Shown here piece by piece: positions 12,282-60,664 of a stretch of 64,000 nt of DNA. Each line of letters begins with the position of its first letter. The stretch's first letter is position 1. This stretch comes from an uncultured Eubacteriales bacterium. GTDB lineage: Bacteria > Bacillota > Clostridia > Christensenellales > UBA1242. The translations under genes and the position numbers were made by a program. The DNA lies in the NCBI GenBank assembly GCA_949077035.1, contig CARUPR010000002.1, positions 91,447 through 155,446 of the forward strand. Direction: 5' to 3'. The notes beneath the pieces were generated by a model. It was not told where the DNA came from, made no database searches, and saw only the letters and a list, made by a program, of their open reading frames with translations.

Positions 12282-12305
12282 GCTAATAAAGGCTTACTTT
12301 TTTTA
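12273..12305 (+). terminator. Intrinsic terminator of acpP
   Basis: GTAAGC (12278-12283) pairs with GCTTAC (12292-12297), followed by T7. The stop codon lies inside the stem. Confidence 0.7.
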
Positions 12306-12380
12306 AAGATAGAAGAAATGTATGAATAAATTTTTATGGCTGCAATAAAGACAGCAAAGAAATAATTGTTTCTTTATGTT
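12305..12380 (+). repeat. Terminator-adjacent dispersed repeat, degenerate (2 units)
   Basis: AAGATAGAAGAAATGTATGAATAAATTTTT and GCAATAAAGACAGCAAAGAAATAATTGTTTCTTT resemble the CAAGATAGGCA..GTG(C)TTTTTT units at 56053-56205 and 38568-38640. Confidence 0.4.
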
Positions 12381-12789: not shown

Positions 12790-13440
12790 ATGAAAAAATT
12801 TCTTTTGGTATTTATGCTTGCAATTTTATCTATATCAATGGTGGGCTGCAATAAAAAAATTAAGATTGAAGATTGTTTGAGCGAACAAACAAAGGTTTAC
12901 TTTAAAGCTCAAACAGATGATGTCAAAGGCACAATCTGCATTGGTCAGAGGGAGGAAAACTTTATTTATGATGGCAATCACACAAAGAATGTTGATTTTA
13001 CTTTGATTACTTTAAAATTTAAAGTTCAACCAACAACCAATCAAATAGATGTGAAATTGAAGGTGAATGAGCAAGAAAAGAATGTGTTGTTGGAATTAAA
13101 TCCAATGGACCATTCCTATATGGCAGATTTAGGTTATGCTTTGAATGAAAATGACAAAATTGCACTAAGCTATCAAGATTTAAACTTAAATTTTGAAAAT
13201 TTAAGCAAAAACTTTAAAATTCAATACAATGATGCAATAAAAATAGCCATAGATGAATTTGGTGATGATTTAGACAGTTTTTATGGCAAAGGAAACTTTG
13301 AAGGTGAATGTTATTTGCAGGTTTATGATTTTAATAAAGACGGAAACCTTTATTGGCTTTTTACAATAATTGGCAAAAATAAAAAGGTTAAGAATGTTGT
13401 AATTGATGTAAAAGATGGCTCGATTTATTTAAAATTTTAA
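12790..13440 (+). CDS. Hypothetical lipoprotein
   Basis: Signal peptide with lipobox SMVGC; AAGAGGTG SD. No recognisable family. Confidence 0.6.
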   Translation: MKKFLLVFMLAILSISMVGCNKKIKIEDCLSEQTKVYFKAQTDDVKGTICIGQREENFIYDGNHTKNVDFTLITLKFKVQPTTNQIDVKLKVNEQEKNVLLELNPMDHSYMADLGYALNENDKIALSYQDLNLNFENLSKNFKIQYNDAIKIAIDEFGDDLDSFYGKGNFEGECYLQVYDFNKDGNLYWLFTIIGKNKKVKNVVIDVKDGSIYLKF

Positions 13441-13554: not shown

Positions 13555-13654
13555 TAACATAAGATAGGCAAACGCAATGTGAGTGCTTTATTATGTGCGC
13601 AAGAAATAAAATGTTCTTTTTGTGAAACATTGCGAGAACTTTCTTTTTTAATTT
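13555..13654 (+). repeat. Dispersed repeat family, 1 good unit plus 2 degenerate units
   Basis: AACATAAGATAGGCAAACGCAATGTGAGTGCTTTATT (13561-13590 core) closely matches the units at 41416-41460 and 60071-60118. It is followed by ..GCGCAAGAAATAAAATGTTCTTTTT and ..GCGAGAACTTTCTTTTTT. Confidence 0.65.
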
Positions 13655-13665
13655 TGCTTAAAAGG

Positions 13666-13693
13666 TTGACATTTTATCGGGGGGGGGTATAAT
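13666..13693 (+). promoter_or_regulatory. Consensus promoter with a G9 homopolymer in the spacer
   Basis: TTGACA 13666-13671, 16-nt spacer whose last 9 nt are G (13679-13687), TATAAT 13688-13693. Confidence 0.55.
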
Positions 13694-13728
13694 ATAGGAA
13701 ATGAAAGTAAAGGAGCAAAAGAGAAGAA

Positions 13729-14256
13729 ATGAAAAAAGCACTTAATGTAATGTTGGTTTTATGTTTAATTTGTTGCGGTTTTATGCTTTCTGCGTGCGGT
13801 GGCAGTCAACCTGGAAAACTTAATTTTAATTATGAATCAAATAGGACAAAGATGGATTCTAATGCTGAACTTGATTTGTATTGTGATGCTGAAATATTTT
13901 TAAATGTAAAAAACGATACAAAAGATACTGTTACAATAGTTAAAGACAAATTTACATTGAGTTTTATTGCACCTCATTGGGTAAGTTATGGCCTATATAA
14001 TGTAAATTTTATGGATGTTGTCTATGTCGACCAATCAATTATAATGAAAGATAGCATGGGAACTGAAATTTCATCGTATATAGATTTAGAATCAGGGAAA
14101 CAAATATCTGTTCTTTTAAAATTTACAGATGATAAATTAATTTATGATTCTTTTTATACTGTGAATAGTCCACACATTGAAGAAATGTATAGGACAAAAT
14201 TTGAATTGCGATATGGAGAAAAAGTGATTTGGGAAGGCCTATTGAATAAAATATAA
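13729..14256 (+). CDS. Hypothetical lipoprotein (candidate phase-variable)
   Basis: Signal peptide with the canonical lipobox LSAC followed by GGS. No recognisable family. Confidence 0.6.
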   Translation: MKKALNVMLVLCLICCGFMLSACGGSQPGKLNFNYESNRTKMDSNAELDLYCDAEIFLNVKNDTKDTVTIVKDKFTLSFIAPHWVSYGLYNVNFMDVVYVDQSIIMKDSMGTEISSYIDLESGKQISVLLKFTDDKLIYDSFYTVNSPHIEEMYRTKFELRYGEKVIWEGLLNKI

Positions 14257-25600: not shown

Positions 25601-28600
25601 GTGCAGTCAGTTGTAATTGACAACTATACATCTCTTAAAGATAACCAATCAGGGTTGTCAACATCATCTGATTTGGCTTATCCAGGAGAAGCTGGCTTGC
25701 TTATCTTGACAATAAGACCATCTGATAGCGATTTTGACTATTTGATTATTGAAAATGATGAATCAAATTTGACAAATAATCGTGCGATTGCTACTTTCAG
25801 TTTAGTTGCAAGAGTTGAAGGAATAGATGGAAATCTCTTTGATGAGAGCATTATTATCGGCTCAACTGTAGGCAATGGTTATAAAATTACCTTGCAAGAA
25901 ATTTTAGATGCCTATTCAAGGACAGGAAATAATTTAAAATATAAAAATTATGATGGTGTCATCTATATTAAATATAATTTAAGTTCAAGCGGTGTTGATG
26001 ATTTAAGCAAGACAATCATAAATGTTTCAACTTGGAAAGATGGTGCAGTTTCTTATAAGTCAAGTAAGGAATTGACTGTAAAATTGCAAAATTATGCTGC
26101 CGTTGAAATTGATGGAAAAGAGCCAATTTCGATAAATCAGAATGGTATATATCATACTTATGAAGTTGCTCGCGGATTAAAATACAAACTTAATATCAAT
26201 TCTTATGGCTTTAGACAGGATAGTATTTCTATTACATCAAACAATTCAATAGGAAAGATTACTTATGAAAATGGAAATTATTATTTGACCATTTCTGAGG
26301 GCACAATTGATTATACCGATGGCAACAATCAGATTATCCTTACAACAAGGGCAAGTCAAGGTGATGGCGATGGTGTCAGAACTGCTGAAAGTCAAACTAA
26401 GGTTATCGTTTTTGAATATGTCTTTAATTACAACAATGAGTCAGATAAAAACTCTGACATTGTAAAAGGCATGGGTGACGGAATAATCAATGTTCAAGTC
26501 GGCTCAAAAATTACTCTTGGACTTGATATCTATGATTATATTGAATACAATTCATCGATAAGTGGAGTAAGAAATAAAATTGAAGAATTTATTTCAACTC
26601 TTGAAAGAAAAGGTGAGTGGAAGACAATAACAAATCTTATTTCTGATGACCAACCTGATTATAAAATGGCTGACTCTTCAAACGAAGATAGAAAAAGATA
26701 TATTTTGGGTGTGGACTCAAATAATGAAGTTTTGAAACATAGCAATTATTATTTTAATTCTGATGGATTAAGCTTGATTCCAAAGAGGACTCATTATCCT
26801 GTTGAAAAATTCTATTTCTTTGAATATAAGGTAAGATATGATTCTTCAAATGGTGTTTATGTAGTCAAAGATGGCAATGATAGTGATAGTGCAAGAGATT
26901 TGCAAACAACTTTCATCTTCAGTGTTTATTCTTCAAGCAGTGAAGAAAGCCCAGTTCCTATCTATACCTATTCAGACCTTACAAATATGCAAGCTGGTGG
27001 TTATTATATATTGCTTAATGATATCACTCTTCCATCTGTTGCTGATGAAGAGGGTGGCGTAAAAGCATTTACACCTTTAAAAGGTGACTTTGCTTCATTT
27101 GACGGAAATGGTCACGCGATAAATTTTGCTGGAATTTATGATATGGGAAATGCAACTGAAATAGGACTTTTCCAATCATTAAACAATGGCTCTATAATCA
27201 AAAATCTTATTGTCAATTATACAACACTTAATGATGGGTCTGACCTTAACACAGACGCAAATGATTCTGTTTATGCTTGGTATGGTTTGAAGACTGTTAA
27301 GTTTATTACCACAGCAGACAACTTTGTTTTTGGCAGTATCGTTGCACAGAATATGGGAACGATTACAAACTGCAGAGTTTATTCAGATGTTTTATCAGAT
27401 GAAAAATACTATTTGGCAATTAAAGCAGATAATGCAATAAATAATAATAGTTATGTAGGCGGACTTGCCGGCTATAACAATGGATTTATCACCAATTGCG
27501 GTGTAAGCATAAATGCAAAAGTTCCATTCAATTTGGCAGGTGTTGTTGCACAAAACAATGGTAAGATTGCAGGATGTTATTTTGAAAATGGAAATTTGAT
27601 AAACAATTCTCAATATGACCAGCATATTGCAGGGCTTGCGATTTTAAATTCTGCCGATGCAAAGATAATTACAAGTTATGTATCTGGCAAACAGACAAAC
27701 ACAAATCTATTCAGCAAGGACAATCAAAGTCAAATTTCTTCAACTCTTGCTGGTGCAGGATTTATTTATAACAATGCAGGTCTTATCAAAGATTGTTATT
27801 CTGATATCGACCTTTCAAAGACTTCCTCTGATATGGCAGGTTTTGCTTATAGAAATGGTGGCTCGATAAGAAATTCATTCTCACTTTCAATTTTAAGAAG
27901 CAATACAACAGCTTCTGCAGGCTTTGTAAAAGAAAATTCTTTTGAAGGAAATGAAGGTCAGTTTGAAAATTGCTATTATCTATACAATTTAATGGCTCCT
28001 GCAAGCTCAAATAGCTCAAATAGTGCTGAAATAGAGGCAGAAAGAGAAAGATTGAGAAAGGAAGGGCATTATGTTGATGGAGAAAACAATATAAACATCA
28101 ATGTGTCTTTATACGATGTTTCCTTTGATGGTGTTAAGAGATTGACTCAAGGTCAATTTGCCGATGCGGAAACTTACTTTAAGCATTATTCTTATGATGA
28201 GAATATGAGCACAAGGTCAGTTTGGTTCTTCTCACGAGGATATACTTCTAATGAATTTATAGATTATATTCCAACAACAGAAAAGATTATTCTTCCTGGT
28301 GATGAAGGAAACAATCAAAGTAATACCGTTTATAGAGAAGAGCTTATGACATTTGGTCGAAATCGTTTGACATTGGTTGCTCCAAATGTTAGGGTGCTTT
28401 CTGTGCGAAACTTTGACCGCTCGGAAGTAGATGAAGAGACCGAAAATATCACATATTTCTATACCGATGATATGAACGCTCCAGAGAGAGGTTCAATCCA
28501 TAATCCAAGACTTATTTATAATGCTCAGACTATGGAAAATGAAATTTTAAATCAGACATCTTTAAATCATATTAATACAACAAATTATCGTATGATAAGC

Positions 28601-30700
28601 GATGTCAATTATAATGATTTTGCAGGTCATTCAAACCTCTATACAGTTATTTATGCAGGAAACTTTGAAGGAAATGGAATGGAGGTTGCAAATATCTCTC
28701 TTGTTTATATGAAAAACCGCACAAATGGTGGTATGTTTTCACAAATTGGTTTTTCTGCAGGAAGAATTGGCGCTGTGAAAAACCTTACAATTTCACCAAA
28801 AGAGGTGGTTTTTAATAATACCAATAATGTAGGAACTTTGGCAGGGGCATTAAAATATGGATATATTTATGATATCACAATTGATGCTTCAAAAAATAAT
28901 CTTACCTCTGTTTCTGGATTAAACTTTGTTGGTGGTGTTATTGGAAAGGCGACCACAGCTTTTGAAGCAAAAGACCTATACAGCGACGCCGATATCTGGT
29001 CTGTTTATACACCTTTCTCTGATATGACTTATATTGAAAATTCTTCAAATGATACCGGCCATTCTTATGCCGGTGGCTTGATTGGTTTTGTTGGAAAAGG
29101 AATAGTTCATAATGCTCATGCTGAGAATATAACAACTATCACAGGCAGCAAGACAGGTCTTGCGTTTGGTGGTATTGGTAATGGCGCAAATGTAGAATAT
29201 GTCTTTGCAAATGTAATTGAAGGTCTTAAATTAAAGGCAAACTTCTATGCGGGATATATTGTAGGTGAACAGGCAGGCAATTTGGGATATGCTTATGTTT
29301 CAGATAATGGTAAAATAGAATCCTCTTTTGTAGGCTCTCCAAAGGCAGCTTTTGCAGTCGGTGGTATTGCTGGCAAATTTGGCGGTGGAAAAATCTATAA
29401 TGTTTTAAATGAACAAAGATTTAGGGTGACAAGTGGTGAAAATCAGGCAACTGTCGAAAACGTAGGCGGATTAGTTGGCTATGTTGATGCTGCGGCAGGT
29501 AGAATTTCTGTGCTTGAAGATAGTGTTTTAAATGCAGATATTACAGCTTCTCTAAATCTAGGTGGTGCTGTAGGAACAGTTAATACTGCTTTAAGAATTG
29601 ATGGTGTTGCTGTTAAGTCACAAACTCTGTCAATATTAGGTATGCAAGAAAATCCAAGAGTTGGCGGTATTGTGGGCTATGTCAAAGATAGCAAATATTC
29701 TGCAATAGAGATTAGAAATAGTTATTGCACATCCAACATCGAAATTGATACCTATACCATGGGTATAAGTTCTGTTGCAAATGTCGGTGGTCTTATTGGG
29801 GTCTCTTCTAAGACACCTGCACTTTCATATTGCTATACAACATCACAAATAAAAGCACAAGTTTATGATGTCAGAGCTTTGGGCTCAAACAAAGAATTTA
29901 ATGAAATACCTTATATTGAAGGAAATAAGGATTTGTATTCATTTAATCATAAAATTGTAGGTAGTCCTGTCAATGATGATAACATAAACTATAACAATGT
30001 TTATTATTGGGGCTCAAACACAGAAGGAACTGATAATCCTTATCAAAATCCAAATACGGAAGATGAATATCCAACTTATAAAATAAATAGACCTTATGTA
30101 AAGTTCTATACAAGGGCAAAAGGTGCAAAGATGGGACTGCAACTTAACAATTATGGTGCATCTTCTCAATATTATATTTCAAGTATTTTAGCTGTGGATA
30201 ATGTGTCTAATAATTCTGTTGATAGACTTAAAAATGTTTTTGGAAATATCTATCAAATTAAAGCTAGATTAGATAAAGTTGTAGGTGCTGCAGATGCCAC
30301 CTATCCAACAGGAATCGATATTGGGACTTATCTTTATTACAATACATTAAGGAATAAATTTACAACAGGTGCTAATGGTGTTAATATTTTAAAAAATGAT
30401 AACACAACCGAGACTTATATTTATACAAAAGATGATAACAATATTTATTCAATGACTATCACTGGCAATCTTATTCAAAACATATTGTTTAAGGGTAGTG
30501 ACGGAGAAAGTTATCGTCATGAAGTAAGAAAGAATGGTAATAATGCCGAAATTGGTTATTTAAGAATAAAAGATAATGTATTTATTTCTGAAAATGATTT
30601 CGATTCAAGGATTACTTTGTATGAAGTTTGGAATACAAATTTTGATAAATTTACTACTTTGTGCATTGAAGACACATTCACATGGGTGAGAAAGTTGTAA
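19667..30700 (+). CDS. Giant (3677 aa) surface lipoprotein with Ig-like (Big_2-type) modules and two blocks of GLUG-type repeats
   Basis: Uninterrupted 11,034-nt ORF. Signal peptide with lipobox-like IFASC. Big_2-like segments near 19.8-20.0 kb and 24.5-24.7 kb. Repeated G-G-[LIV]-[VA]-G-x-N-x-G-x-I motifs (FGGLVGENNGQI, FGGIAGVNTGEI, VGGLAGYNNGFI, LAGVVAQNNGKI, ...) at about 23.1-23.9 kb and 27.2-29.9 kb. Confidence 0.85.
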   Translation: MVKSRKLSILIFSLLLVLASLIFASCGKLDYSKTYLSSSNGDYIELFVEEEKELSITINNPVDKMNRGITFSQSNPLVANVTQIANQNNTTTYSIVGLSGGKTIVDFVSIEGRKSLSITINVKEFSNTLEKGENSLYLSKTKQLKPTSNDFKFKDSATERNLEFYFYGKTSNSGLLTEEDILSSDGYLNNFVNIQIYSIENNDYLIFTDKDGFLHTLGEEILVLGSNNVRYEFIDVSMDEEGFSFDTTRASAINYGNKFAFLAKYENAKLEEGEGNGRIFCESEFHVLKDIVAEDFKHEYGYKIDDVPFKAGDETSLYKLDNLKDGKITLIPQYKTTILDNPILIGKSANYLTAYLQLELPTNELLEFDFNTKDKDFVNTNLIEILKNGDKTIYYFEINCSIGNPRKTKIDFNFWYDGFKNSDDSKVNFTYSIDVDIRIIPMTLLINNIDFAQLNKVYKFYDYYASENSGWQAFNFSVVPEGAEYNVLKLDLTNSNLQIKYKNIVYSDTIVEINDLKEPVYVKGVDNAQLTEAVQNLPVQMEFNIIQQDRLETNIQYEILKGVRALNFETENFKELISLERYSGEKLFDDIYADAEFNGMTFTLESGKDVVKFAYDEANLFNKVGDKYYLNINLMPRDVGSGTYLITLDNGTSTLLTIDVREGLNSLSLTTKNEDNSIKFKEDSENYSLIYLLNRNAQSYFDAKLIANDEINSTAIVDIDIINDSSSIFTRLQEDGRYLIYSSLSGQNNIVFKVKGYKIENFVKREIFFEYIVNLVTYELAENLFVYKLSDAYNDSYPMQTNAKYVNVYAGTNNLDIRQAKFEVRLKNQNALLFQSQNHDESRRGFVAEKFKQEFLYFESDTPITKDGVPVDRIFYSQYQSNIYTIGRLGTFDAERLIFTSLGSGEVKLIAHVMQFNKLYSETININILPYEEVQKVSLQDTVDELEFSAFKKERSVIAFPTNSTATNSELVALVEGGQIIRNEQVFKVLDKNSINYIESDGKTHITFKVNEDFLKAVVLADDKTYEEEVIAGNIRIVAKDWLDSNGDLRPGYIEYASIRFEFAKGTEKSRYTIENADDLNMVRNNLSSHFKINTTIDASNLSLPLGELSGSIIGTSSYAEITGLNISQAWNNEAEGLAYYGLFTSIAKGGYLEYIQFSGKFSVKTDSNSFIGLVAGKNNGRLTNIGASISTSNISIAENFNAYFGGLVGENNGQIIQDFTKFESGKAYAGFTPNIVMMNDFVNIKYALSNNFERSFGGIAGVNTGEIRKIDSENVSFSGYSNYMAFARIKASYEGTIAVGHNYLVNIGGLVGRNQQGQYSQLDKNTQQDVKYDARIVGGYINSEDDFIPYLNNDNFKDGKGIIVGGEVWGDGFVGGVVGNNDESSLNNFCGITTRTFVRCYKQFGENSQLTLLAFMSANKGDSGSAMSDTENTAYAIQAVDDGKVLEESAMGILYSSEKPQNSQLSLSNIGFGTKNGNEISVLSDINDENNEANVLSYLQRNLLTNSNPDSDFIVSSSNRANYYGDFLVVGENNNHQKIILYSKTFAEGNLDDLSITQKFNNALLSKNNNTQIFYTYYFNVASAAGEDIANLQSQLDLELNKHTSQSNFYPFIAKGEMNFVSKSPDILTIDQMGKITIKNTGRALITASSILNSNEALNFYIYVVNYFNSQSEMNDEEKVSVVYPTISSLDAVNQTTIELRGNNSATLYIIPNYQADIKIDQKTSFVSDQRGFASFRNVRFYLAQNSDLTARVRVFKDNGLTPANEVTNDDFYDEENNPLDISVVGQIITIRRKDRTEENQYRLYIEPILTQTIDGEIYTISTNKTIDEAFVDYKYGALSLSNKNYNEVPIRTSKMVADEITLISTDENETAEDLLYYIIGLKNQHLQGNVNPEKIDYQLSGDERLFFVVFNKISKEPLGNGTFKHKFSLEITINTNCQLYKNRYNEDIYGTYLLHIQSSSNSAVSRDIEINFEKTGVQSVVIDNYTSLKDNQSGLSTSSDLAYPGEAGLLILTIRPSDSDFDYLIIENDESNLTNNRAIATFSLVARVEGIDGNLFDESIIIGSTVGNGYKITLQEILDAYSRTGNNLKYKNYDGVIYIKYNLSSSGVDDLSKTIINVSTWKDGAVSYKSSKELTVKLQNYAAVEIDGKEPISINQNGIYHTYEVARGLKYKLNINSYGFRQDSISITSNNSIGKITYENGNYYLTISEGTIDYTDGNNQIILTTRASQGDGDGVRTAESQTKVIVFEYVFNYNNESDKNSDIVKGMGDGIINVQVGSKITLGLDIYDYIEYNSSISGVRNKIEEFISTLERKGEWKTITNLISDDQPDYKMADSSNEDRKRYILGVDSNNEVLKHSNYYFNSDGLSLIPKRTHYPVEKFYFFEYKVRYDSSNGVYVVKDGNDSDSARDLQTTFIFSVYSSSSEESPVPIYTYSDLTNMQAGGYYILLNDITLPSVADEEGGVKAFTPLKGDFASFDGNGHAINFAGIYDMGNATEIGLFQSLNNGSIIKNLIVNYTTLNDGSDLNTDANDSVYAWYGLKTVKFITTADNFVFGSIVAQNMGTITNCRVYSDVLSDEKYYLAIKADNAINNNSYVGGLAGYNNGFITNCGVSINAKVPFNLAGVVAQNNGKIAGCYFENGNLINNSQYDQHIAGLAILNSADAKIITSYVSGKQTNTNLFSKDNQSQISSTLAGAGFIYNNAGLIKDCYSDIDLSKTSSDMAGFAYRNGGSIRNSFSLSILRSNTTASAGFVKENSFEGNEGQFENCYYLYNLMAPASSNSSNSAEIEAERERLRKEGHYVDGENNININVSLYDVSFDGVKRLTQGQFADAETYFKHYSYDENMSTRSVWFFSRGYTSNEFIDYIPTTEKIILPGDEGNNQSNTVYREELMTFGRNRLTLVAPNVRVLSVRNFDRSEVDEETENITYFYTDDMNAPERGSIHNPRLIYNAQTMENEILNQTSLNHINTTNYRMISDVNYNDFAGHSNLYTVIYAGNFEGNGMEVANISLVYMKNRTNGGMFSQIGFSAGRIGAVKNLTISPKEVVFNNTNNVGTLAGALKYGYIYDITIDASKNNLTSVSGLNFVGGVIGKATTAFEAKDLYSDADIWSVYTPFSDMTYIENSSNDTGHSYAGGLIGFVGKGIVHNAHAENITTITGSKTGLAFGGIGNGANVEYVFANVIEGLKLKANFYAGYIVGEQAGNLGYAYVSDNGKIESSFVGSPKAAFAVGGIAGKFGGGKIYNVLNEQRFRVTSGENQATVENVGGLVGYVDAAAGRISVLEDSVLNADITASLNLGGAVGTVNTALRIDGVAVKSQTLSILGMQENPRVGGIVGYVKDSKYSAIEIRNSYCTSNIEIDTYTMGISSVANVGGLIGVSSKTPALSYCYTTSQIKAQVYDVRALGSNKEFNEIPYIEGNKDLYSFNHKIVGSPVNDDNINYNNVYYWGSNTEGTDNPYQNPNTEDEYPTYKINRPYVKFYTRAKGAKMGLQLNNYGASSQYYISSILAVDNVSNNSVDRLKNVFGNIYQIKARLDKVVGAADATYPTGIDIGTYLYYNTLRNKFTTGANGVNILKNDNTTETYIYTKDDNNIYSMTITGNLIQNILFKGSDGESYRHEVRKNGNNAEIGYLRIKDNVFISENDFDSRITLYEVWNTNFDKFTTLCIEDTFTWVRKL

Positions 30701-30740: not shown

Positions 30741-30850
30741 TTAATAAGAAGCAAAAGTTTTATTCAGCAATACAAAAACCAAGATAAAGAGTGAGTTTTT
30801 TGGAAATAAAGAAAGAGGCAGATAAAGAAAGGTGTTTTATTTTTATTATA
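30741..30850 (+). repeat. Terminator-adjacent dispersed repeat, degenerate units
   Basis: ..ACCAAGATAAAGAGTGAGTTTTTTGG.. and ..AGAGGCAGATAAAGAAAGGTGTTTTATTTTT.. resemble the CAAGATAGGCA..GAGTGCTTTTTT family. Confidence 0.45.
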
Positions 30851-38473: not shown

Positions 38474-38511
38474 AAAAAAGACACTATCCATTTGCGAAAG
38501 TGTCTTTTTTT
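38474..38511 (+). terminator. Intrinsic terminator of rpoBC
   Basis: AAAGACACT (38477-38485) pairs with AGTGTCTTT (38499-38507), followed by a T-run. Confidence 0.8.
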
Positions 38512-38535
38512 GAATGCAAAATAAACATGAATGAA

Positions 38536-38640
38536 ATTAAGATATGCTGTAAAGAAATGAGGTTAGGGAGGCAAGATAGACAGAAATGAAAAGAGTGTTT
38601 TTTTTTAGAAACACAAGATAAGCAAAGAAGAGTTTTTTAT
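38536..38640 (+). repeat. Terminator-adjacent dispersed repeat (2-3 tandem units)
   Basis: GAGGCAAGATAGACAGAAATGAAAAGAGTGTTTTTTTTTAGAA and ACACAAGATAAGCAAAGAAGAGTTTTTTATGG, preceded by a weaker unit. Confidence 0.6.
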
Positions 38641-40410: not shown

Positions 40411-41070
40411 ATGAACAAAAGAATAATTTCTATTCTAGTAAGTTTGGTTATACTGGCAATTTCTGTGACCTTATTGCTTGTATTTATGCTAGGTAAAAAG
40501 AATGATGCGCCCGATTATCAACCATCTTTATCTTGCATAGTAAAAGATTTAAAAATTTCTGTGGGCGAAAGATTGACAAATTTTTATCAAACCAATGATA
40601 AAAATGCTCAAGTTTATTTTGAATATGATAAAACTGACATTATTGATATCAATGAAAATGAAATTATTGGAAAGAAAGCAGGAAAGGTAAGTATTACAAT
40701 AAAAATTGCAAATTCAAAAGAGGAGATAAGCAAAAATTTTATTGTTGAAGTTTATGCAGAAGGATACAAATTTAAAATAGATACTCTTGAATATTGCGAT
40801 TTTGATGAAAATTCTAATACCTTGATTGTTTATGAAGAAAATGCACTGTTTGAAATCAAAGTTTTTGATTTGAAAGGAAATAAAGTTGAAACATTAAAAC
40901 CTGTTTGTAGATTTGATAATAATTTAATTAATATCAGCTTTAATTATGGAAATTATTGTATTTATAACATAACCGGTGATTGTAAGGTGGATTTTATATT
41001 CTCTGATTTAGACTTTGCGATATCTTTAAATTTTGTTTGTCAAATTGATTCTTTAAAAAACCTAGATTAA
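40411..41070 (+). CDS. Hypothetical N-terminally anchored protein with Ig-like segment
   Basis: N-terminal TM helix. GKKAGKVSITIKIANSKEEISKNFIVEVY resembles a Big_2-type strand pattern. Confidence 0.45.
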   Translation: MNKRIISILVSLVILAISVTLLLVFMLGKKNDAPDYQPSLSCIVKDLKISVGERLTNFYQTNDKNAQVYFEYDKTDIIDINENEIIGKKAGKVSITIKIANSKEEISKNFIVEVYAEGYKFKIDTLEYCDFDENSNTLIVYEENALFEIKVFDLKGNKVETLKPVCRFDNNLINISFNYGNYCIYNITGDCKVDFIFSDLDFAISLNFVCQIDSLKNLD

Positions 41071-41090
41071 TTCAATCTAGGTTTTATATT
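41055..41090 (+). terminator. Intrinsic terminator
   Basis: CCTAGAT (41061-41067) pairs with ATCTAGG (41075-41081), followed by TTTTATATT. The stop codon lies in the loop. Confidence 0.55.
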
Positions 41091-41186
41091 AAAAAAAAGA
41101 CCTTAAAAATATTAAGGTCTTCCAGACGGTGATTTAACTTAGGAGAAAAACCGTCTGTATGTATCTGATTTTCATCAGCTACGAAT
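41091..41186 (-). ncRNA. Candidate small RNA (about 95 nt) with its own extended -10 promoter and terminator
   Basis: On the minus strand: TGtTATAAT (41199-41191); then hairpins CTGAtgaaaaTCAG and CAGACGGT(19-nt loop containing UCUCCU)ACCGTCTG; then AAGACCTTAA/TTAAGGTCTT followed by T8. There is no minus-strand CDS upstream that this terminator could serve. Confidence 0.3.
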
Positions 41187-41415
41187 ATATATTATAACAA
41201 ATAAATTTACAAGTAAAGCAAATTTTTGTATTTTTACAAAATCTTTTAATTTTCATACAAAAATAATGTCGAAAATTGTAAATTAATGTTAAAATAAAAT
41301 TATTCAACATTTTGACAATTAAGTATTTTGAATGTAGAAAAAATAAAATTTAAACCAAGATAAAAAATTATTCAAGTATGGGAAAAGCAAGTATATTTTT
41401 TCAATCAGTTTGAAT

Positions 41416-41460
41416 ATAAAAAGAAAGCACTCACTTTGTTTGTGCCTATCTTGCGTTCCT
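41416..41460 (-). repeat. Dispersed repeat, best-conserved copy (minus orientation)
   Basis: Minus strand reads AGGAACGCAAGATAGGCACAAACAAAGTGAGTGCTTTCTTTTT. 37 of 40 core positions are identical to the copy at 60071-60118. It abuts the tRNA-Glu terminator. Confidence 0.8.
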
Positions 41461-41491
41461 AAAAAAAATAACAGGCTAAAATACTGTTATT
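41461..41491 (-). terminator. Intrinsic terminator of tRNA-Glu
   Basis: On the minus strand, ATAACAG pairs with CTGTTAT and is followed by T8. Confidence 0.65.
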
Positions 41492-41492
41492 A

Positions 41493-41567
41493 TGGTAGCC
41501 TCAAGGAGAATCGAACTCCTGATTCCGCCGTGAGAGGGCGGCGTCTTAACCGCTTGACCATGAGGCC
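41493..41567 (-). tRNA. tRNA-Glu (anticodon CTC), CCA encoded
   Basis: Minus strand: GGCCTCATGGTCAAGCGGTTAAGACGCCGCCCTCTCACGGCGGAATCAGGAGTTCGATTCTCCTTGAGGCTACCA. It folds as a cloverleaf with anticodon stem CCGCC/GGCGG and loop CTCTCAC, and is close to Bacillus tRNA-Glu. Confidence 0.9.
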
Positions 41568-48151: not shown

Positions 48152-48166
48152 ATATAAAACCGCTTA

Positions 48167-48236
48167 ATTTAAAATTCAATATTTAAAATTCATTACTTAA
48201 AATTTATTATTTAAAATTCAATATTTAAAATTCTCT
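48167..48236. repeat. 14-nt tandem repeat x5
   Basis: ATTTAAAATTCAAT / ATTTAAAATTCATT / ACTTAAAATTTATT / ATTTAAAATTCAAT / ATTTAAAATTCTCT, head to tail. Confidence 0.9.
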
Positions 48237-48285
48237 TTTAATAAAAAAACCAATTTTTCTGAAAATTTAAAAAATAAAATATACT

Positions 48286-48318
48286 AAAAAAAAGACACTA
48301 AAATTGTGTCTTTTTTTT
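48286..48318. terminator. Bidirectional intrinsic terminator between the hydrolase gene and nifJ
   Basis: A8-GACAC (48294-48298), loop, GTGTC (48306-48310)-T8. Confidence 0.75.
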
Positions 48319-48320
48319 AT

Positions 48321-48359
48321 GAAGGCAAGCTAGGCAAGAAGGCGAGTGCTTTCTTTTTT
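48321..48359 (+). repeat. Dispersed repeat copy
   Basis: GAAGGCAAGCTAGGCAAGAAGGCGAGTGCTTTCTTTTTT immediately after the terminator. Confidence 0.65.
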
Positions 48360-48412
48360 AATTGTTTTTCAAATTCAAAATCATTCAGATTTTGATTTGT
48401 TTTAAATTAGAA

Positions 48413-51400
48413 TCACTCAGATTTTGATTTGTTTTCAAGTTTTGAATATTCATAAATCGCCTGATTTTTTTGTTTTTCCAAAAGTTCTTGCATACCTTTT
48501 TCCATGGTAATTTGAAATCTTCTTTCGCCTTTAAGAAAATCAAAATAATTGTCGCTGTTCATATTGCTTGAAAGCTCTAATTTATCTGATGCAGGGTCAT
48601 ATTTAAATAATGGCCAGAATCCACAATCAACAGCTTTTTTGGTTTCTAGCATCATGTTTGAAAGTTCAAAACCTTGATTAATGCAAGGGGCATATGCAAT
48701 TACGATACTTACACCTTGATAATTTTGTGCATCACTTAATGTTTTTATTGCATGATTCATATTTCCGCCAAGAGCGATTTGACCTACAAATACATCTTTA
48801 TACGCTAGTGCGATTTGACCTAAATTTTTCTTTGCGACCTTTTTCCCGCTGTCAGCAAATTTGACACTTGCTCCAGTTGGAGTTGCCTTGCTTGCTTGAC
48901 CGCCTGTATTTGAATAACTTTGATTGTCAAGCACTAAAATATTTACATTTTCGCCACTTGCAAGAACATGGTCAAGTCCACCAAAGCCGATATCGTCAGC
49001 CCATCCATCGCCACCAATAATCCAAATTTTTTTGTCTTTGTTTATATTGTTAAATTGGCTGCCAAGTTTTATTCCAAGACCAAATTCTGCATTATCTTCA
49101 AACAAACTATTTGCCCAGAAAACACCACCATTTTCATCTTTTCCATAAGGGCAGGCACCAAAAGTTCCGCCATAAATTGATGAGCAACCTGTAGCATTTG
49201 CAATCATCATATTGCTTCCATTAAGCATGGTCAATATTTTGATATAAGGTGTTTCACCGCAGCCAGCACAAGCACCAGAAAATTCAAATAAACTATCATT
49301 AAATTGAAGACCTTTTGTCATTGCAGAAGAGAATAATGTTTGTTTTTCACGTTTAAGCACATTTTCTTCTTTGTATTCTTTTGCTTTGTCTTCATAAACT
49401 TCCTCTGTGCCAACCATTTCAAGAGCCTTGTTGATGGCAGGGCAGGTTTTTGCACACACACCGCAGCCTGTGCAATCGTCTGGTGAAAGTAAGATTTTAT
49501 ACAATTTATCATTAAGACCAATAGCCTTGACAAAATCTTCTTTTTCCATTTTGTTGTCAATAAGCATTGCTTTCAGTGCAGAGTGAGGGCAGGCGATTAC
49601 GCATTGACCACATTGAATACAATTTTCTTTTATCCAGTTTGGAAGCCTTGATGCAATGCCTCTCTTTTCATATTGACTGGTTGCAAGAGGTGTTGAGCCA
49701 TCAGCCTCAAATTTTGATACTTTGATTGTGTTTCCCTGTAAGTTTTTGATTGGAAGCATGATATCATTATAAAATTTATTGTCATACTGTGCGCTGTTTG
49801 CATTATAAACTTTGCCTGTCAAACTTGCAACATTAACTTCATCAGCATACTCAAGTGCAGCTTTCATTGCATTTATGTTTTTTTCTACAACTTCTTTTCC
49901 TTTGATTGCAAAAGTGTTTTCGATTGCTTTTGAAATGTTTTTAATAATTTCTTCATCGCTTAACAGGTTTGAGCATTTAAATAGGGCAGTTTGCATTATT
50001 ATATTAATCTTGCTTCCTAAATTATTTTCGCGAGCAAGTTTTTGTCCATCAATTACAAAAAGTTTTGAATTTGTTTTTTGTAGTTTTTCGACATAATTTT
50101 TTGGTAAAACTTTGCCTATTTCATCTTTATTGAAGATTGTATTTAATAAAACAACACCATTATCTTTAAGGCCGTCAAGACAATCATATCTTGTGACGAA
50201 AGAGAAATTGTTGATTGAAATTAAATTTGCATCTTTGACTAGATATTCGCTTTTAATTGGAGCATCAGAAAGTCTAAGGTGAGATATGGTCAAACTTCCC
50301 GATTTTTTAGAGTCATATTCAAAATATCCCTGCACATATTTATCATAATTTTCACCTAAAATTTTGATGGTAGATTTGCTTGCCGAAACAGAGCCGTCAG
50401 AGCCAAGACCAAATATCTTGATAGCAAAACTATCATCTTGATAAGGGTCTTCTGATAAAGGCAATGAAGAATTAAACATATCATCATCAATACCAATTGT
50501 GAAATCATCCTTTTGATTTTTTGACATATTATCAAAGACCGCTTTGATACAAGCAGGGGTAAAATCCTTTCCGCCTAAACCATATCTGCCTGATAAAATG
50601 TTTGCTGATATATTAAAACTTCTTAAAGCGGCAGCAACATCAAGATAGAGAGGTGGTTTAGAGCCATTTTCCTTAGTTCTGTCAAGAATAGTAATATTTT
50701 TTACACTTTTTGGAAGTGCATCAATAAAGAGATGTGAAAGGAATGGTCTATAAAGTCTGACTTTGATTAAACCTATCTTTTTATCATTATTTTTTTCTAT
50801 ATATTCTTCAATAGATTGACAAGAAGAGCCCATTGAAACGATTATGTCTTCAGCATCCTTTGCACCAACATATTCAAAAGCTTTGAAGTTTGAGTTTGTA
50901 ATTTTATTGATTTGCTCAAAAACTTCTTCAAGGTTTTTCTCAATGCTATTATAATTGCCGCTGTTTCTTTCACGATTTTGGAAAAATACATCAGGGTTTT
51001 GTGCTGTCCCAAATTGTTTATCTTGATATGAAGATATAAATTGTTCTGGCAAATCTTTCACCAAATTTTTGATTTCGTCATCTTCAAACACCTTAATCTT
51101 TTGATATTCATGACTTGTTCTAAAACCATCAAAATGATGAAGAACTGGCAAAGAACACTTTAAAGCAAGCATATGTGATGCAAGTGCCATATAAACTGAT
51201 TCTTGGACTGAAAAAGAGCCAAGCATGATAAAGCCAGTGCTTCTTACAGCCATGATGTCAGAATGGTCACAGAATATTGAAAGTGCGTGTGAAGCAACAG
51301 CTCTTGAAGCAACATGAATAACAGCAGGCAAACATTCTCCCGCCAATTTAAACATATTTGGAATCATAAGAAGCAGACCTTGGCTTGATGTGAATGTGCT

Positions 51401-54531: not shown

Positions 54532-55983
54532 ATGGCAAAAAAGGGAAATGTTAAAAAAGGTTTTGCAAATTATTTGCTTATTCTGTTTATTGCGATAATT
54601 GCTGCATTTTTTATAATTGTTACAATAATGCTTTTTACTCCATTCAAAAGTATTTTAGGATTCAAATATTTTGTATATTATGGGGATGCTAAACAAATTT
54701 CCTCAATAAAAAGCGCAGGGCAAGATATTGGTATAAATTTTTCAAATATAGAAAATGTTGATATAGAGTGTGGTTTTTCTAATGTCATTATCAAAAGAGC
54801 AGGCTCTAAGATTGATAGTGGTAAGATTGTTATTGAAAATAAATGTTCTGGTTTTGCTCGTGAAGACCAAGATACAGATTTTAAATATGATATCAATTTT
54901 ACCGATAACACTTTCAAAAATCTTAAAATAAAAGTTACCGAACCTGAAGGATTTTTGTTTTTTAAGAAGGATATAACTATCTCTCTTTTAACAACAATTT
55001 ATCAAAAAGATTCTTTCAATAATACAAAGATAAATATAAACAGCACAAAGGGAAATGTCTTTGTTGGAAACAATGAAGTTTTAAATCAAAGTCCAGAAGC
55101 TTTCAATGACACTTCTATAAAATCTTTGGATGTAAAAAATACCGATGGTGATATATTTATATTTGAAAAAACATCAAAAATCTCTGATTTAATGATTAAA
55201 ACAAATAAAGGTTATATTGATGCAAGGGCAAACTTTGAAATAAACAATTTAAAGTTGAATGCTTTAAAATCAAAAATAAATTTCAATGGTTTGACTTTAG
55301 ATGATGCAAAATTCAATATAAACAATTCTGATTTGAATATCAATAATTTAAATGCAAAAAATCAGGCAGAACTTGATGTAAAATCAGGTTATATCACAGT
55401 CAATAATTTGGAAGGGACAATAACTTCAAATTCAATGATAAGCGATATGGGAAAGGCAACTATTACTATAAATAATGTAAAAAACGGCAATGTTGTTTTC
55501 CCAAATGCTAATGATTCTGTTATAAAATTGGGAAGTGTTGATGAAAATTCTCAAGTATATTTGAGAGGAAAGGATTGTGACGCAAAAATCAATAAATTAG
55601 CTGGGGTAGCTTTTATTGAAACAACTGGTGGAAATGTTGCAATAACTACTAAAGGAAAAGAAAAGGAAACTGATATAGAAGCTTCACCACGCCTAGAAGT
55701 TAAGACTGGGTCTGGAAATATAAATTTAAAATATAAAGAAAAAAATATCAAAAATAATTATGTAAATTTAAAGACCAATTCAGGCAGTATAAATGTTGAT
55801 TTAAGTCAAGAACTTGCGTTTGTCCTTAATGTTTTTAATACAAAAAATGAGGTAAGAGATAATAAAAACATTTCTATTGAAGGTTATGGCAATGAATTTG
55901 TTATTCCATTGGTAAGAAATGGCGGAACAAATAATCTTAATATCACTTCTGATGGAAAGATTGCAGTAAATTTTATTAAATAA
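54532..55983 (+). CDS. N-terminally anchored DUF4097-like beta-strand repeat protein
   Basis: TM helix followed by repeated short strands (KTGSGNINLKY, LKTNSGSINVDL, TNKGYIDARANF) typical of DUF4097 putative adhesins. GGGAGG SD. Confidence 0.45.
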   Translation: MAKKGNVKKGFANYLLILFIAIIAAFFIIVTIMLFTPFKSILGFKYFVYYGDAKQISSIKSAGQDIGINFSNIENVDIECGFSNVIIKRAGSKIDSGKIVIENKCSGFAREDQDTDFKYDINFTDNTFKNLKIKVTEPEGFLFFKKDITISLLTTIYQKDSFNNTKININSTKGNVFVGNNEVLNQSPEAFNDTSIKSLDVKNTDGDIFIFEKTSKISDLMIKTNKGYIDARANFEINNLKLNALKSKINFNGLTLDDAKFNINNSDLNINNLNAKNQAELDVKSGYITVNNLEGTITSNSMISDMGKATITINNVKNGNVVFPNANDSVIKLGSVDENSQVYLRGKDCDAKINKLAGVAFIETTGGNVAITTKGKEKETDIEASPRLEVKTGSGNINLKYKEKNIKNNYVNLKTNSGSINVDLSQELAFVLNVFNTKNEVRDNKNISIEGYGNEFVIPLVRNGGTNNLNITSDGKIAVNFIK

Positions 55984-56011
55984 TTAAAATATAAATCATT
56001 TTAATTAAATT

Positions 56012-56050
56012 AAAAAGAGAATTTCAAAAATGAAATTCTCTTTATTTTTA
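56012..56050. terminator. Intrinsic terminator (bidirectional architecture)
   Basis: AGAGAATTTCA (56016-56026) pairs with TGAAATTCTCT (56031-56041). An A-run lies 5' and a T-rich tract 3'. Confidence 0.75.
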
Positions 56051-56052
56051 TT

Positions 56053-56205
56053 AACTCAAGATAGGTGTAAACAACAAGTATGTTTTTTAGTGACGCAAGA
56101 TAGGAATGATTGAAATGAGTGCTTTTTTAGTGATGCAAGACATAGGCAAAGAGGGTGCTTTTTTTAGAAATAAGAAAGATTGAGCATGAGAGTTTTCATT
56201 TGCGA
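56053..56205 (+). repeat. Array of 4 tandem units of the dispersed repeat family
   Basis: CTCAAGATAGGTGTAAACAACAAGTATGTTTTTTAGTG / ACGCAAGATAGGAATGATTGAAATGAGTGCTTTTTTAGTG / ATGCAAGACATAGGCAAAGAGGGTGCTTTTTTTAGAA / ATAAGAAAGATTGAGCATGAGAGTTTTCATTTGCG. Confidence 0.75.
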
Positions 56206-56238
56206 TAATGAAAATTTGAATTTATACAAATTTGAAGC

Positions 56239-57477
56239 TTAACTTATTGGTTTTTCTTGGTTGTCTGAAATATCTGTTTTTAATTTGACCTTTCTTTCCA
56301 AACTTCCTTCTTTGTTGAGTTTGAAATTTTTAAATCGCAGCAGCAAGAATAAGGTTATTCCAAAGGCACCGCCAACGATTTGGGCAATATCTGTATTAAA
56401 TGGAGAAAATATTGCTATAGACAATATTATTCTTATCAGCTTTGTCGAAAAATGAATTATCGTTGATTTAGTCGCAGAGTATTCAAGTTGTAAAAATGTT
56501 GAAATGTTTGCTTTTACACTATTTATGATTAAATCAGCGATTTGAATGGACAAATAAATTATACCAATTTTCAAAACTACATGATATAAGCTGAATAGAG
56601 AGAAAAATAATATTAATCCAATAATTATATAAAAAGCGGTGATTATTGCCGAATTTTTTAGCGATTTTTTATAATTATATACCGACTGAGATATATCTAT
56701 TTTTGCAATTCTGTTTATGACAACAACTGCATCCCAAAGAGGGTCGGTGGTTAAGTTTATAAAAGTTATTGCAATATAATATTCCTCACCAAAGCTAAAT
56801 GCAATTTTAAAGCCAACAAGGTATATTACAAGCATTAGCAAGTCGCCAAGAATATTTAAAGATTCATATTTGAAATTTTTTATGATATTAAAGGCAAACT
56901 TAAATTTATTTATGTTAAAACCAAACCAAACACAAACATATATAAATAAAGCAGAGAGATTGACTATCAAGATTATAAGTTGATTTTTTGTTATAAGTGC
57001 GGTTATTGTCACCGATAATAAATTTAAGATAATAAATCCAATACTACATAAATTGCCAGGTTTATCTTTATTCTCAAAATACAATTTTTCTGTTATAATA
57101 TTATTTACATAACTAAAAAACAGTTGGCCAATAGCCATTAATGTGAAGATTTTATAAATTTTAGCATCCATATTCATAAAAGTAATATAGTCTTCTACAA
57201 AAATTCCAACTAAACTAAATATTAATAATCCGAATATAATACCCAAAATCATGCCGGTATTTACACAATCTTTATTATTTTCTTTATTCGCTCTTATATT
57301 AGATGCTGATGAAAAGAAACTCAACAAAACATAAACTGCAAATTGAAGGGGATAGGTTATAGAAAAAATCCCAGAAAAAGCAGTATTTCCGGTTATTAAA
57401 CCAAGTAAAAAATATGTCATCACATTGAGAATAGAAAAAGCAAAAGCAGTCATCGACATTGTAAAATAGCGTTTCAT
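56239..57477 (-). CDS. Polytopic membrane protein (about 12 TM, possibly MOP/MATE-like transporter)
   Basis: Highly hydrophobic multi-helix ORF. Start set to ATG 57477 because the listed TTG 57513 coincides with the -35 box. Confidence 0.5.
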   Translation of the reverse strand: MKRYFTMSMTAFAFSILNVMTYFLLGLITGNTAFSGIFSITYPLQFAVYVLLSFFSSASNIRANKENNKDCVNTGMILGIIFGLLIFSLVGIFVEDYITFMNMDAKIYKIFTLMAIGQLFFSYVNNIITEKLYFENKDKPGNLCSIGFIILNLLSVTITALITKNQLIILIVNLSALFIYVCVWFGFNINKFKFAFNIIKNFKYESLNILGDLLMLVIYLVGFKIAFSFGEEYYIAITFINLTTDPLWDAVVVINRIAKIDISQSVYNYKKSLKNSAIITAFYIIIGLILFFSLFSLYHVVLKIGIIYLSIQIADLIINSVKANISTFLQLEYSATKSTIIHFSTKLIRIILSIAIFSPFNTDIAQIVGGAFGITLFLLLRFKNFKLNKEGSLERKVKLKTDISDNQEKPIS

Positions 57478-57484
57478 AAAAATT

Positions 57485-57513
57485 ATGATACCATATTTTC
57501 TTGTCTTTGTCAA
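57485..57513 (-). promoter_or_regulatory. Promoter of the membrane protein gene
   Basis: On the minus strand: TTGACA 57513-57508, 17-nt spacer, TATCAT 57490-57485, then 7 nt and ATG 57477. No SD. Confidence 0.55.
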
Positions 57514-59292: not shown

Positions 59293-59421
59293 TATTTTTA
59301 TTTAAATATTTAATTTGTTTTGGCTGTTTAATAGATTTTTATGATTGTATATAAAATCTTTAATACAATAAATTATTACATAGGGTGAGTTTGCTCTTTT
59401 TTTGGTAGGTGAGTTATCAAT

Positions 59422-60070: not shown

Positions 60071-60118
60071 CAAAAAAGAAGAAAGCACTCACAATGTTCG
60101 TGCCTATCTTGCGTTCCT
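60071..60118 (-). repeat. Dispersed repeat, well-conserved copy (minus orientation)
   Basis: Minus strand reads AGGAACGCAAGATAGGCACGAACATTGTGAGTGCTTTCTTCTTTTTT, directly after the NUDIX gene terminator. Confidence 0.8.
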
Positions 60119-60120
60119 AA

Positions 60121-60150
60121 ATAAAAAACAATTCATTTCGGATTGTTTTT
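60121..60150 (-). terminator. Weak intrinsic terminator of the NUDIX gene
   Basis: On the minus strand, ACAAT pairs with ATTGT (5-bp stem) and is followed by T6. Confidence 0.4.
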
Positions 60151-60202: not shown

Positions 60203-60664
60203 TTAAATATTCCAAACGCGCTTAGCGGAATTTAATTGTTCGCTAAAAACTTTACCTTTACTCCATTTTATATATTTAGGCAAATCTTCAATATCTATAA
60301 ACAATCTTTCTGATATTTCCCATTCTTTAACAAAGGGGAATTCGTCTTTTACTTTAGCAGTATATCTAAGTTGATAATACACATCATTATTTTCTACAAC
60401 TTCAACTGCTCCTAGATATTTTGCTTCTTTAATTGTTATACAAGCTTCTTCCATTATTTCTCGATTTAGGGTTTCCAAAAATGTTTCGTTTGTTTCTGGA
60501 TGCCCGCCAGGTATTGTCCAAGTATCCTTATTTCTTACTATCAACAACTGATTTTTGCTGTTAAAAATATAACCACTTACTTGTGTATATTTTTGATTTT
60601 TTATTTTAAAACTTTCGCACCATAAAATCTTGCAATTATCTGATAAAATTTCATAATTTTTCAT
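60203..60664 (-). CDS. NUDIX hydrolase
   Basis: Nudix box GGHPETNETFLETLNREIMEEACI (Gx5Ex7REuxEExGu). Confidence 0.85.
   Translation of the reverse strand: MKNYEILSDNCKILWCESFKIKNQKYTQVSGYIFNSKNQLLIVRNKDTWTIPGGHPETNETFLETLNREIMEEACITIKEAKYLGAVEVVENNDVYYQLRYTAKVKDEFPFVKEWEISERLFIDIEDLPKYIKWSKGKVFSEQLNSAKRVWNI

Follow-up and report, generated by a model that had tools for sequence, protein, structure and literature searches.

The stretch analysed here (the window) is 64,000 nucleotides from an uncultured Eubacteriales bacterium (contig CARUPR010000002.1, positions 91,447–155,446), with a G+C content of 31.5% and exact protein matches in the metagenome-assembled genome (MAG) GCA_949902715.1 and in two Logan runs. 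Between a DUF4097 gene and a convergent gene it carries a tandem array of a short repeat that recurs at other intergenic sites. The focal region (56048–56165) consists of three head-to-tail units behind the bidirectional terminator at 56012–56045, with the array beginning at the T-run of this terminator. Each unit is laid out as TTAG or TTAT, NNANN-CAAGATAGG, a variable stretch of 10–12 nt, (G)AGTGCTTT and a T-run. A preliminary description made from the sequence alone had proposed a four-unit array at 56053–56205; three units are supported, while the fourth (56166–56205) escapes detection and is at best a decayed relic.

The existence of a dispersed repeat, as first proposed, is borne out by its core and by a profile of whole units. 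The core CAAGATAGGYA occurs 17 times with at most one mismatch against 1.7 expected, and none of 100 shuffles reaches 17. An nhmmer profile built from the clear units was searched against the window and its same-genome flanks (2.6 kb on the left, L087; 18.8 kb on the right, L084 and L131), a total of 85.5 kb. The search recovers nine units at six loci in the window, scoring 14–47 bits, and six further units at three loci in the 21 kb of flanking sequence. The overall tally is 15 units at nine unlinked loci with scores of 10.7–47 bits, compared with a top score of 8 bits in 20 shuffles of intergenic DNA. All 15 units are intergenic and none falls in a coding region, in agreement with the original observation. 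The preliminary description had also listed nine loci, all in the window. Six of these were recovered (13555, 38563, 41419, 48317, 56048 and 60077), whereas 12305–12380, 30741–30850 and 59378–59420 score no better than shuffled intergenic DNA. Inspected by eye, 12305, 30741, 59378 and 56166–56205 resemble purine-rich stretches with a T-run at the end; these sub-background loci and the fourth focal unit may be old relics. The family is real, but narrower than first described (six of nine loci and three of four focal units).

The units are 41–46 nt in length, with the consensus TTAGGAACGCAAGATAGGCAC-N9-GAGTGCTTTCTT(T)n. Tandem Repeats Finder lists none of the arrays, and misses the focal one at 56 kb because its units are too diverged (about 60–70% alike). 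The two best copies (unit 41 and unit 60, from unlinked loci) share 90% identity across 51 nt (family D12). Below this pair, preservation falls off to units near the limit of detection (14 and 10.7 bits) and finally to debris; the sequences 13624–13656 and 48334–48366 share 76% identity (family D9). Two independent Logan contigs end at position 60108, inside unit 60, which suggests an additional near-identical copy elsewhere in the genome.

All nine loci begin behind a T-run (usually ...TTTTTTAG) that follows a hairpin, and at all nine the orientation of the units is that of the upstream hairpin and T-run, with six loci on the plus strand and three on the minus strand. Under a strict automatic definition of a terminator, four of the first seven loci start 3–6 nt past the end of a same-strand stem; the random expectation for such adjacency is 2.4% (binomial P ~1e-5). 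The tRNA-Glu locus is a fifth adjacent case, with a 7-bp hairpin and T8 recognized by eye; the automatic search missed this terminator because a spurious open reading frame (ORF) masked it. At the rpoC locus, the sixth, unit 38b lies 58 nt past the terminator with unit-like debris (38506–38562) in between. The two loci found later sit behind terminators, one belonging to an SDR gene and the other to a small RNA (sRNA)-like gene. The preliminary proposal that the units share the orientation of the terminated gene agrees with the co-orientation with the upstream terminator at nine of nine loci.

The resident terminators are mutually unrelated, with stems such as GACAC, GAGAATTTC, ATAACAG, CAATTC and AAGGA... 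The 5′ junction of the units is conserved: TTAG precedes eight of 11 units and TTAT or TTAA precedes the remainder. The GC skew is positive over the entire window, which therefore lies in one replichore; since three of the nine loci are nevertheless on the minus strand, unit polarity follows the terminator and not replication. As a separate observation, several resident terminators (38479–38505, 48291–48313 and L084 ~2990–3020) have a stem AAAAAGACA(C/T)...(G/A)TGTCTTTTTTT in common and may represent either a loose repeat family or a strong compositional preference.

No match to the units was found in Rfam 15 (4227 families) at gathering or permissive thresholds. The only Rfam matches in the window are four tRNAs; a permissive scan of 55950–56260 returned the resident terminator hairpin only, and one of 41050–41480 returned nothing on unit 41. 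The pattern AAGATAGGCA-N6-16-GAGTGCTTT gave 36 single matches in 185,579 GTDB species genomes and 38 in JGI metagenomes, and a looser pattern gave 33 single matches in IMG/VR. All of these matches are in unrelated taxa and are at chance level on rescoring with the profile (best 23.5 bits, at a single site). A blastn search of unit 41 against phages and plasmids produced short chance matches only, and a full-text literature search returned no paper that describes the motif or a similar repeat in Clostridia. The initial view that this family is undescribed is thus sustained across Rfam, phages, plasmids, GTDB species genomes, JGI metagenomes and IMG/VR.

Relatives were compared over the syntenic rpoB–rpoC–tRNA-Glu–transketolase–hydrolase loci in stretches of up to 23.5 kb. 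They have RpoC identities of 98% (P0133; L128–130), 94% (L078 and L081–083), 89% (L079) and 88% (L080). The matching segment of the window carries three supported loci (38563, 41419 and 48317), whereas the syntenic stretches of all relatives compared contain zero units even when E-values as high as 10 are allowed, leaving the orthologous terminators bare, with ordinary AT-rich spacer directly after them. The 98% sister lineage is a separate species, because its rpoC DNA is 89% identical and 33% of four-fold sites differ; this divergence would leave time enough for the neutral decay of early insertions. Among the lineages compared, the family is restricted to one species.

A second strain (SRR36216081, strain B) matches the window at 99.3–100% identity across some 42 kb and carries the same units at five loci. 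However, this strain is without unit 56a, owing to a 42-nt indel (seen against L002) that is bounded by T-runs (TTT). The remaining 118 nt of the focal array differ by five substitutions or indels, compared with a divergence of about 0.2% overall, and unit 56b differs from its strain B copy at four positions. Private variants are shared within arrays: AGGAA...GTTCTATCTT in uS2 and uS3, GAAAGATAGG in uR1 and uR2, and AGTGAYG in 56b and 56c. Since units of the same array have these variants in common, arrays also grow by local duplication. The window and SRR36216081 also show 11 differences packed into 94 nt (59322–59415; again against 0.2% overall), in the spacer downstream of an acetyltransferase gene. 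Either recombination or hypervariability of the spacer would account for this cluster, which overlaps the doubtful locus 59378–59420.

Well-preserved units fold as AAGA(U)AGGCAC/GUGCUU-UCUU, a stem of 10 bp with one bulge and a folding energy of −9 to −13 kcal/mol. The preliminary description had noted at most a weak 6-bp hairpin, which holds energetically but understates the stem. Folding is weak relative to shuffled sequence (z from −2.2 to +2.1), with degenerate units no better than shuffles. Owing to G·U pairs, the sense strand folds better than the antisense strand in ten of 11 units. The loop is 9–11 nt and the full stem uses most of the T-tract. An intrinsic terminator is defined by a G+C-containing stem of 5 bp or more, a 3–8-nt loop and a U-tract directly behind it; only unit 48 (48336–48355) passes a simple terminator scan. 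The earlier statement that the units are not ordinary terminators agrees with this, but its implication of no structure was somewhat too strong in view of the compensatory changes described below.

A first covariation test, run with 11 units, gave no signal (89.7% paired versus 89.6% in column shuffles). A second test used 16 sequences, after the addition of the uS, uQ and strain B copies. In this alignment 88% of pair cells are paired, compared with 48–66% in slid controls, and the covariation score is 0.217 versus 0.163 ± 0.019 in shuffles, a value reached by three of 500 shuffles; related rows inflate these counts. Two compensatory events of the kind originally sought are present. In unit 38b the pair 20–38 changes from G-C to A-U, and in the uS array a C-G pair becomes A-U, so that units AAGATAGGAAC...GAGTTCTATCTT form 9–10 Watson–Crick pairs. 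The signal lends modest support to the hairpin as a constrained feature of propagating copies and is not evidence for a conserved RNA gene.

Table 1. Repeat units and their resident terminators in the window, followed by units in the flanking contigs
Feature	Position	Strand	Evidence and remarks
Unit 13a	13555..13594	+	nhmmer 31.1 bits; behind T8 run, downstream of gene 12790..13440
Unit(s) 13b/c, indel-bearing or decayed: GTGCGCAAGAAATAAAATG...AACATTGCGAGAACTTTCTTTTTT	13595..13654	+	Below profile detection
rpoC intrinsic terminator	38479..38505	+	Terminator scan
Unit 38b	38563..38606	+	nhmmer 30.9 bits; compensatory variant AGACA/TGTTT
Unit 38c, shortened	38605..38640	+	nhmmer 14.2 bits, E 5.7e-4 on intergenic DNA
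Unit 41, best-preserved copy	41419..41462	-	nhmmer 47.4 bits; fold −8.9 kcal/mol
tRNA-Glu terminator, ATAACAG-N9-CTGTTAT then T8	41461..41490	-	Sequence; tRNA at 41493-41567
Bidirectional terminator, hydrolase gene (+)/PFOR gene (-)	48291..48313	.	Terminator scan
Unit 48	48317..48357	+	nhmmer 31.2 bits
Bidirectional intrinsic terminator, DUF4097 gene (54532..55983, +)/convergent gene 56239..57513 (-)	56012..56045	.	Terminator scan; DUF4097 from Pfam
Unit 56a, first of focal array	56048..56088	+	Degenerate; nhmmer 24.7 bits
Unit 56b (TTAGTGACGCAAGATAGGAATGATTGAAATGAGTGCTTTTTT)	56087..56128	+	nhmmer 34.9 bits
Unit 56c	56127..56165	+	nhmmer 26.9 bits
Claimed fourth focal unit	56166..56205	+	No profile match, E up to 100, intergenic DNA only
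Unit 60	60077..60120	-	nhmmer 44.6 bits; 90% identical to unit 41
NUDIX gene (60203..60664, -) terminator	60126..60148	-	Strict terminator test; sequence
Flank units (2 units)	L084 3021-3106	+	Profile search
Flank unit	L131 17799-17834	-	Profile search
Flank units (3 units)	L131 19388-19512	+	Profile search

The family itself, its adjacency to and co-orientation with terminators, its species restriction, the stages of decay, one polymorphism and the retained hairpin potential are established. With a probability somewhat above even, the units are a lineage-specific, non-autonomous, small terminator-like interspersed repeat that spreads to the T-tracts of terminators. They are most likely a selfish or neutral element and not a conserved regulatory signal, given their constant sharp ends, the unrelated terminators behind which they lie, their strict polarity, their confinement to one species, their spectrum of decay and their unstable arrays. 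Among the options raised in the preliminary description, a miniature mobile element that targets terminators fits best, in view of the absence of units in relatives, the occurrence of all decay stages and the one strain polymorphism.

Spread of this kind would involve a trans-acting enzyme, encoded outside the 85 kb examined, that inserts copies in one orientation. The insertion point would be the T-tract, typically ...TTTTTTA^G, just 3′ of the hairpin of an intrinsic terminator, a site that would form a largely untranscribed safe haven between the terminator and the next promoter or gene end. A unit ending in its own hairpin and T-tract would recreate the target, and head-to-tail stacking would follow from this. 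Arrays would change also by local duplication and deletion between T-runs, and inserted copies would decay roughly neutrally. We infer active transposition, the exact cleavage site and the class of enzyme. The best guess for the latter, by analogy with REP/RAYT or IS200/IS605 elements, is a single-strand HUH/Y1-type enzyme, with a ribonucleoprotein (RNP) resembling that of group IIC introns as a possible alternative. A single-strand HUH/Y1 mechanism would explain the hairpin unit, the single orientation 3′ of a short motif and the self-stacking.

Several points weigh against a mobile repeat. No transposase, reverse transcriptase or other mobilizing gene is present among the Pfam-annotated genes of the 85.5 kb, and no clean pair of filled and empty sites occurs among the sequences compared. 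The single presence/absence polymorphism found removes the most degenerate unit (56a) and for this reason looks like a slippage deletion, not a new insertion. Some units are over-decayed for an origin after the split from the sister lineage (33% four-fold difference); this could reflect an older family that other lineages have since lost, or rapid mutation of the region. It follows from the compensatory changes that something depends on the hairpin, possibly a host function. The sample is also small, at nine loci.

A bolder form of the mobile reading, for which the probability is low, is that the units are the footprint of an undescribed terminator-homing system, in which copies of a hairpin element of 45 nt, or of a retroelement's 5′ end, are placed at the T-tract behind terminators. 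An RNP or HUH enzyme would read the hairpin, the T-run and TTAG, a signal also used by group IIC introns, and the copies would recreate the signal so that head-to-tail arrays build up. If true, this would be the smallest site-specific mobile element known, and it would show terminators being used in nature as safe-harbour addresses in the genome.

The closest described analogue of the units is SPRITE, a species-restricted Rho-independent terminator-like repeat of pneumococci that is enriched at the 3′ ends of coding sequences (2011, PMC3049150). Both are small AT-rich interspersed repeats of Firmicutes with a stem followed by a U-rich tract, and neither is known to have a transposase or to make a target duplication. 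SPRITE is enriched near the 3′ ends of coding sequences and between convergent genes, and it is found in one species and its nearest relative (PMC3049150). The published description sets the two apart: SPRITE has an 18-bp duplex with AAAA/TTTT termini, whereas the units have a 10-bp bulged stem and termini TTAG.../...CTTTCTT. The units also differ in being 41–46 nt long, in lying directly behind a resident T-run and in forming head-to-tail arrays of one to three or more, and the strand bias of SPRITE is about 60% compared with the nine-of-nine polarity found here. The units belong to the same kind of element, a multi-copy stem with a T-rich tail at gene 3′ ends in a narrow lineage; this is a functional kind and does not imply homology.

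REP, BIME and REPIN–RAYT elements are imperfect palindromes that, like the units, are short (about 20–40 nt), extragenic, dense downstream of genes, non-autonomous and lineage-specific in sequence. However, they carry GTAG at the 5′ foot of the hairpin, where the units read GATAG or AACGC with no conserved GTAG. REPs typically form inverted pairs (REPINs), whereas all 15 units are direct and head-to-tail and a both-strand profile search of the 85.5 kb found no inverted partner unit. REPs also persist vertically across related species, unlike the present family, which is absent from sister lineages, and they flank a RAYT (Y1 HUH transposase) gene, none of which is among the Pfam matches in the 85.5 kb. 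As for the palindrome itself, the units can form the bulged 10-bp hairpin in 88% of pair cells, but it is thermodynamically weak.

The IS200/IS605 elements and their ORF-less derivatives insert in one orientation 3′ of a short specific sequence, leave no target duplication and recognize hairpins in single-stranded DNA. The TTAG that precedes eight of 11 units may correspond to such a sequence. They have separate left-end and right-end hairpins, whereas each unit has a single one, and their orientation is tied to the lagging-strand template; replication-driven orientation of this type is not supported here, as three of nine loci are opposed within one replichore. Miniature inverted-repeat transposable elements (MITEs) of the DDE type have terminal inverted repeats and a target-site duplication and show no preferred orientation. 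A comparison with them is prompted by the arms of the unit, an imperfect inverted repeat with T-run plus A on both sides, but the nine-of-nine polarity is unexpected for a MITE. The T-run plus A may be a target-site duplication; the uS units abut with only CTT|TAGG and almost no T-run between them.

The same features could instead belong to an RNA-level element, namely weak back-up terminators or 3′-end stabilizing or processing hairpins selected to catch read-through. This explanation is unlikely. In its favour, the units take the orientation of the upstream gene at all nine loci, their consensus combines a hairpin with a U-rich tail behind it, the terminator scan accepts one unit, G·U pairs favour the sense-strand fold in ten of 11 units, the hairpin is kept by two compensatory changes and SPRITE has been proposed as a co-opted terminator (PMC3049150). 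On the other hand, the same terminators occur without units in every relative compared, including the 98%-RpoC sister. Decay has affected most units, whose folding energies are like those of shuffles, and the full stem would consume most of the U-tract. The units come after terminators that are already strong, and the genes served are mixed (rpoC, tRNA-Glu, NUDIX, DUF4097, SDR and the sRNA-like gene). The preliminary description had raised a motif of the 3′ untranslated region or transcript end; this option is disfavoured because a conserved RNA function should be common to the relatives, where the units are absent, and because units downstream of good terminators should rarely be transcribed. 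The family is apparently not a conserved regulatory RNA.

Somewhat less probable again is a derivation from group IIC introns, with the units representing 5′-terminal fragments, or a mini-element moved by the RNP of an intron, that remained at the terminators used as homing sites. These introns (e.g. B.h.I1) target a terminator stem-loop and its Ts, inserting a few nucleotides downstream in the orientation of the terminator (PMC1702495). The 5′ exon of B.h.I1 ends in ...TTTTTTAG|GTGTG (from a primer sequence), a junction that equals that of the units (TTTTTTAG). In addition, four units start with GTGAC, GTGAT or GTGCG, and GTGACGCAAGATAGGCAC matches the 5′ end of Ll.LtrB (GTGCGCCCAGATAGGGTG) at 11 of 18 positions. 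B.h.I1 can also use an internal stem-loop and IBS1 at +68 as a cryptic exon, which could give nested head-to-tail 5′ fragments. However, the intron is a structured ribozyme (domains I–VI) of more than 400 nt, usually with a reverse transcriptase ORF, a size far above that of the roughly 45-nt units. No Rfam group II intron domain (Intron_gpII or group-II-D1D4) was found in the window, its flanks or the relatives, and no reverse transcriptase gene occurs among the Pfam matches in the 85 kb. The two best-preserved units start with GGAAC and not GUGYG, incomplete retrotransposition would be expected to leave 3′ and not 5′ fragments, and the sequence resemblance is short and could be due to chance.

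Transposition could be dispensed with altogether if the arrays arose by local duplication or slippage at terminators, together with gene conversion or template switching between T-runs. The T-runs that bound the strain B indel, and the private variants within arrays (uS2/uS3, uR1/uR2 and 56b/56c), which show duplication in situ, are consistent with such processes. A dispersal step is still needed to place one 45-nt sequence at nine unlinked loci behind unrelated hairpins, and random template switching would not carry a single sequence with sharp, constant boundaries; as a complete account this is improbable, slightly more so than an intron origin.

By far the least probable reading is that a host protein binds the units as DNA sites, for instance as a nucleoid, segregation or uptake signal. 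Conservation of the AAGATAGG and GAGTGCTTT blocks at variable spacing would suit such sites, but the family is species-specific, and its copies degrade quickly, are never inside genes and cluster in tandem, with a polarity that strictly tracks terminators and not replication. Promoter, small-ORF, CRISPR, uptake-sequence and att-site identities were dropped on the size, degeneracy, polarity and position of the units.

The family is new and an unusual variant of the bacterial small interspersed repeats, with very short units, strict polarity and stacking behind resident terminators. Repeats of this class are well studied in Proteobacteria (REP/REPIN) and pneumococci (BOX, RUP and SPRITE), but hardly in uncultured gut Clostridia. 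The strict polarity, T-tract insertion and self-stacking make a compact system for the study of target choice by short non-autonomous elements, and they bear on whether terminators shelter such elements or owe their own renewal to mobile terminator-like DNA. In practical terms, the repeat breaks short-read assemblies, as in the two Logan contigs that end inside unit 60, and it varies between strains that are about 99.8% identical, so that it could serve as a strain marker.

Other features were observed near the repeat loci. The terminator preceding unit 48 and the unit itself are flanked by two tandem repeats, one at 48157–48243 with a 14-nt unit (ATTTAAAATTCAAT) in about 4.8 copies and one at 48367–48435 with a 32-nt unit in about 2.1 copies, the latter overlapping the 3′ end of the PFOR gene. 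The hydrolase–PFOR spacer is about 260 nt here, compared with about 20–35 nt in the relatives L079 and L080. Downstream of the units at 13555–13654, a sigma-70-type promoter (TTGACA-TTTTATC-G9-TATAAT; 13666–13694) with a poly-G tract in its spacer precedes the gene at 13729..14256. L090 and L091 (L091 being from the same MAG) carry G10 here, whereas G9 is found in L089, L092 and the window, so that the spacer alternates between 16 and 17 nt. Either the promoter is a candidate for phase variation or the difference stems from a homopolymer error in assembly.

The sRNA-like gene belongs to a multi-copy family with members on the minus strand at 41091–41217 in the window and at approximately 16860–16935, 17838–17915 and 18325–18400 in L131. 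The copies have a TATAAT-like box, a hairpin, a conserved UUCUCCUAA(G/A)U that is anti-Shine–Dalgarno-like and an intrinsic terminator. Between the window copy and its counterpart in the sister species (L128 14493–14671), conservation is 83.5% across 188 nt; the window copy also resembles a sequence in L078. No Rfam match was found for this family, the best being PrrF at 28 bits versus a gathering score of 90.

Directly upstream of rpoB lies a giant ORF of 3677 amino acids (19667–30700) with no Pfam domain on record. Its synteny is kept in all relatives, at 3702–3756 amino acids, and in the sister species (L128) a 748-residue LRR protein is inserted between the giant ORF and rpoB. Just beyond the window, six tRNA genes (L131 15130–15890) are followed by a strong terminator without a unit. 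Past this terminator, about 300 nt of atypical, G+C-richer DNA precede a DUF4180 gene and are possibly the edge of an integrated element.

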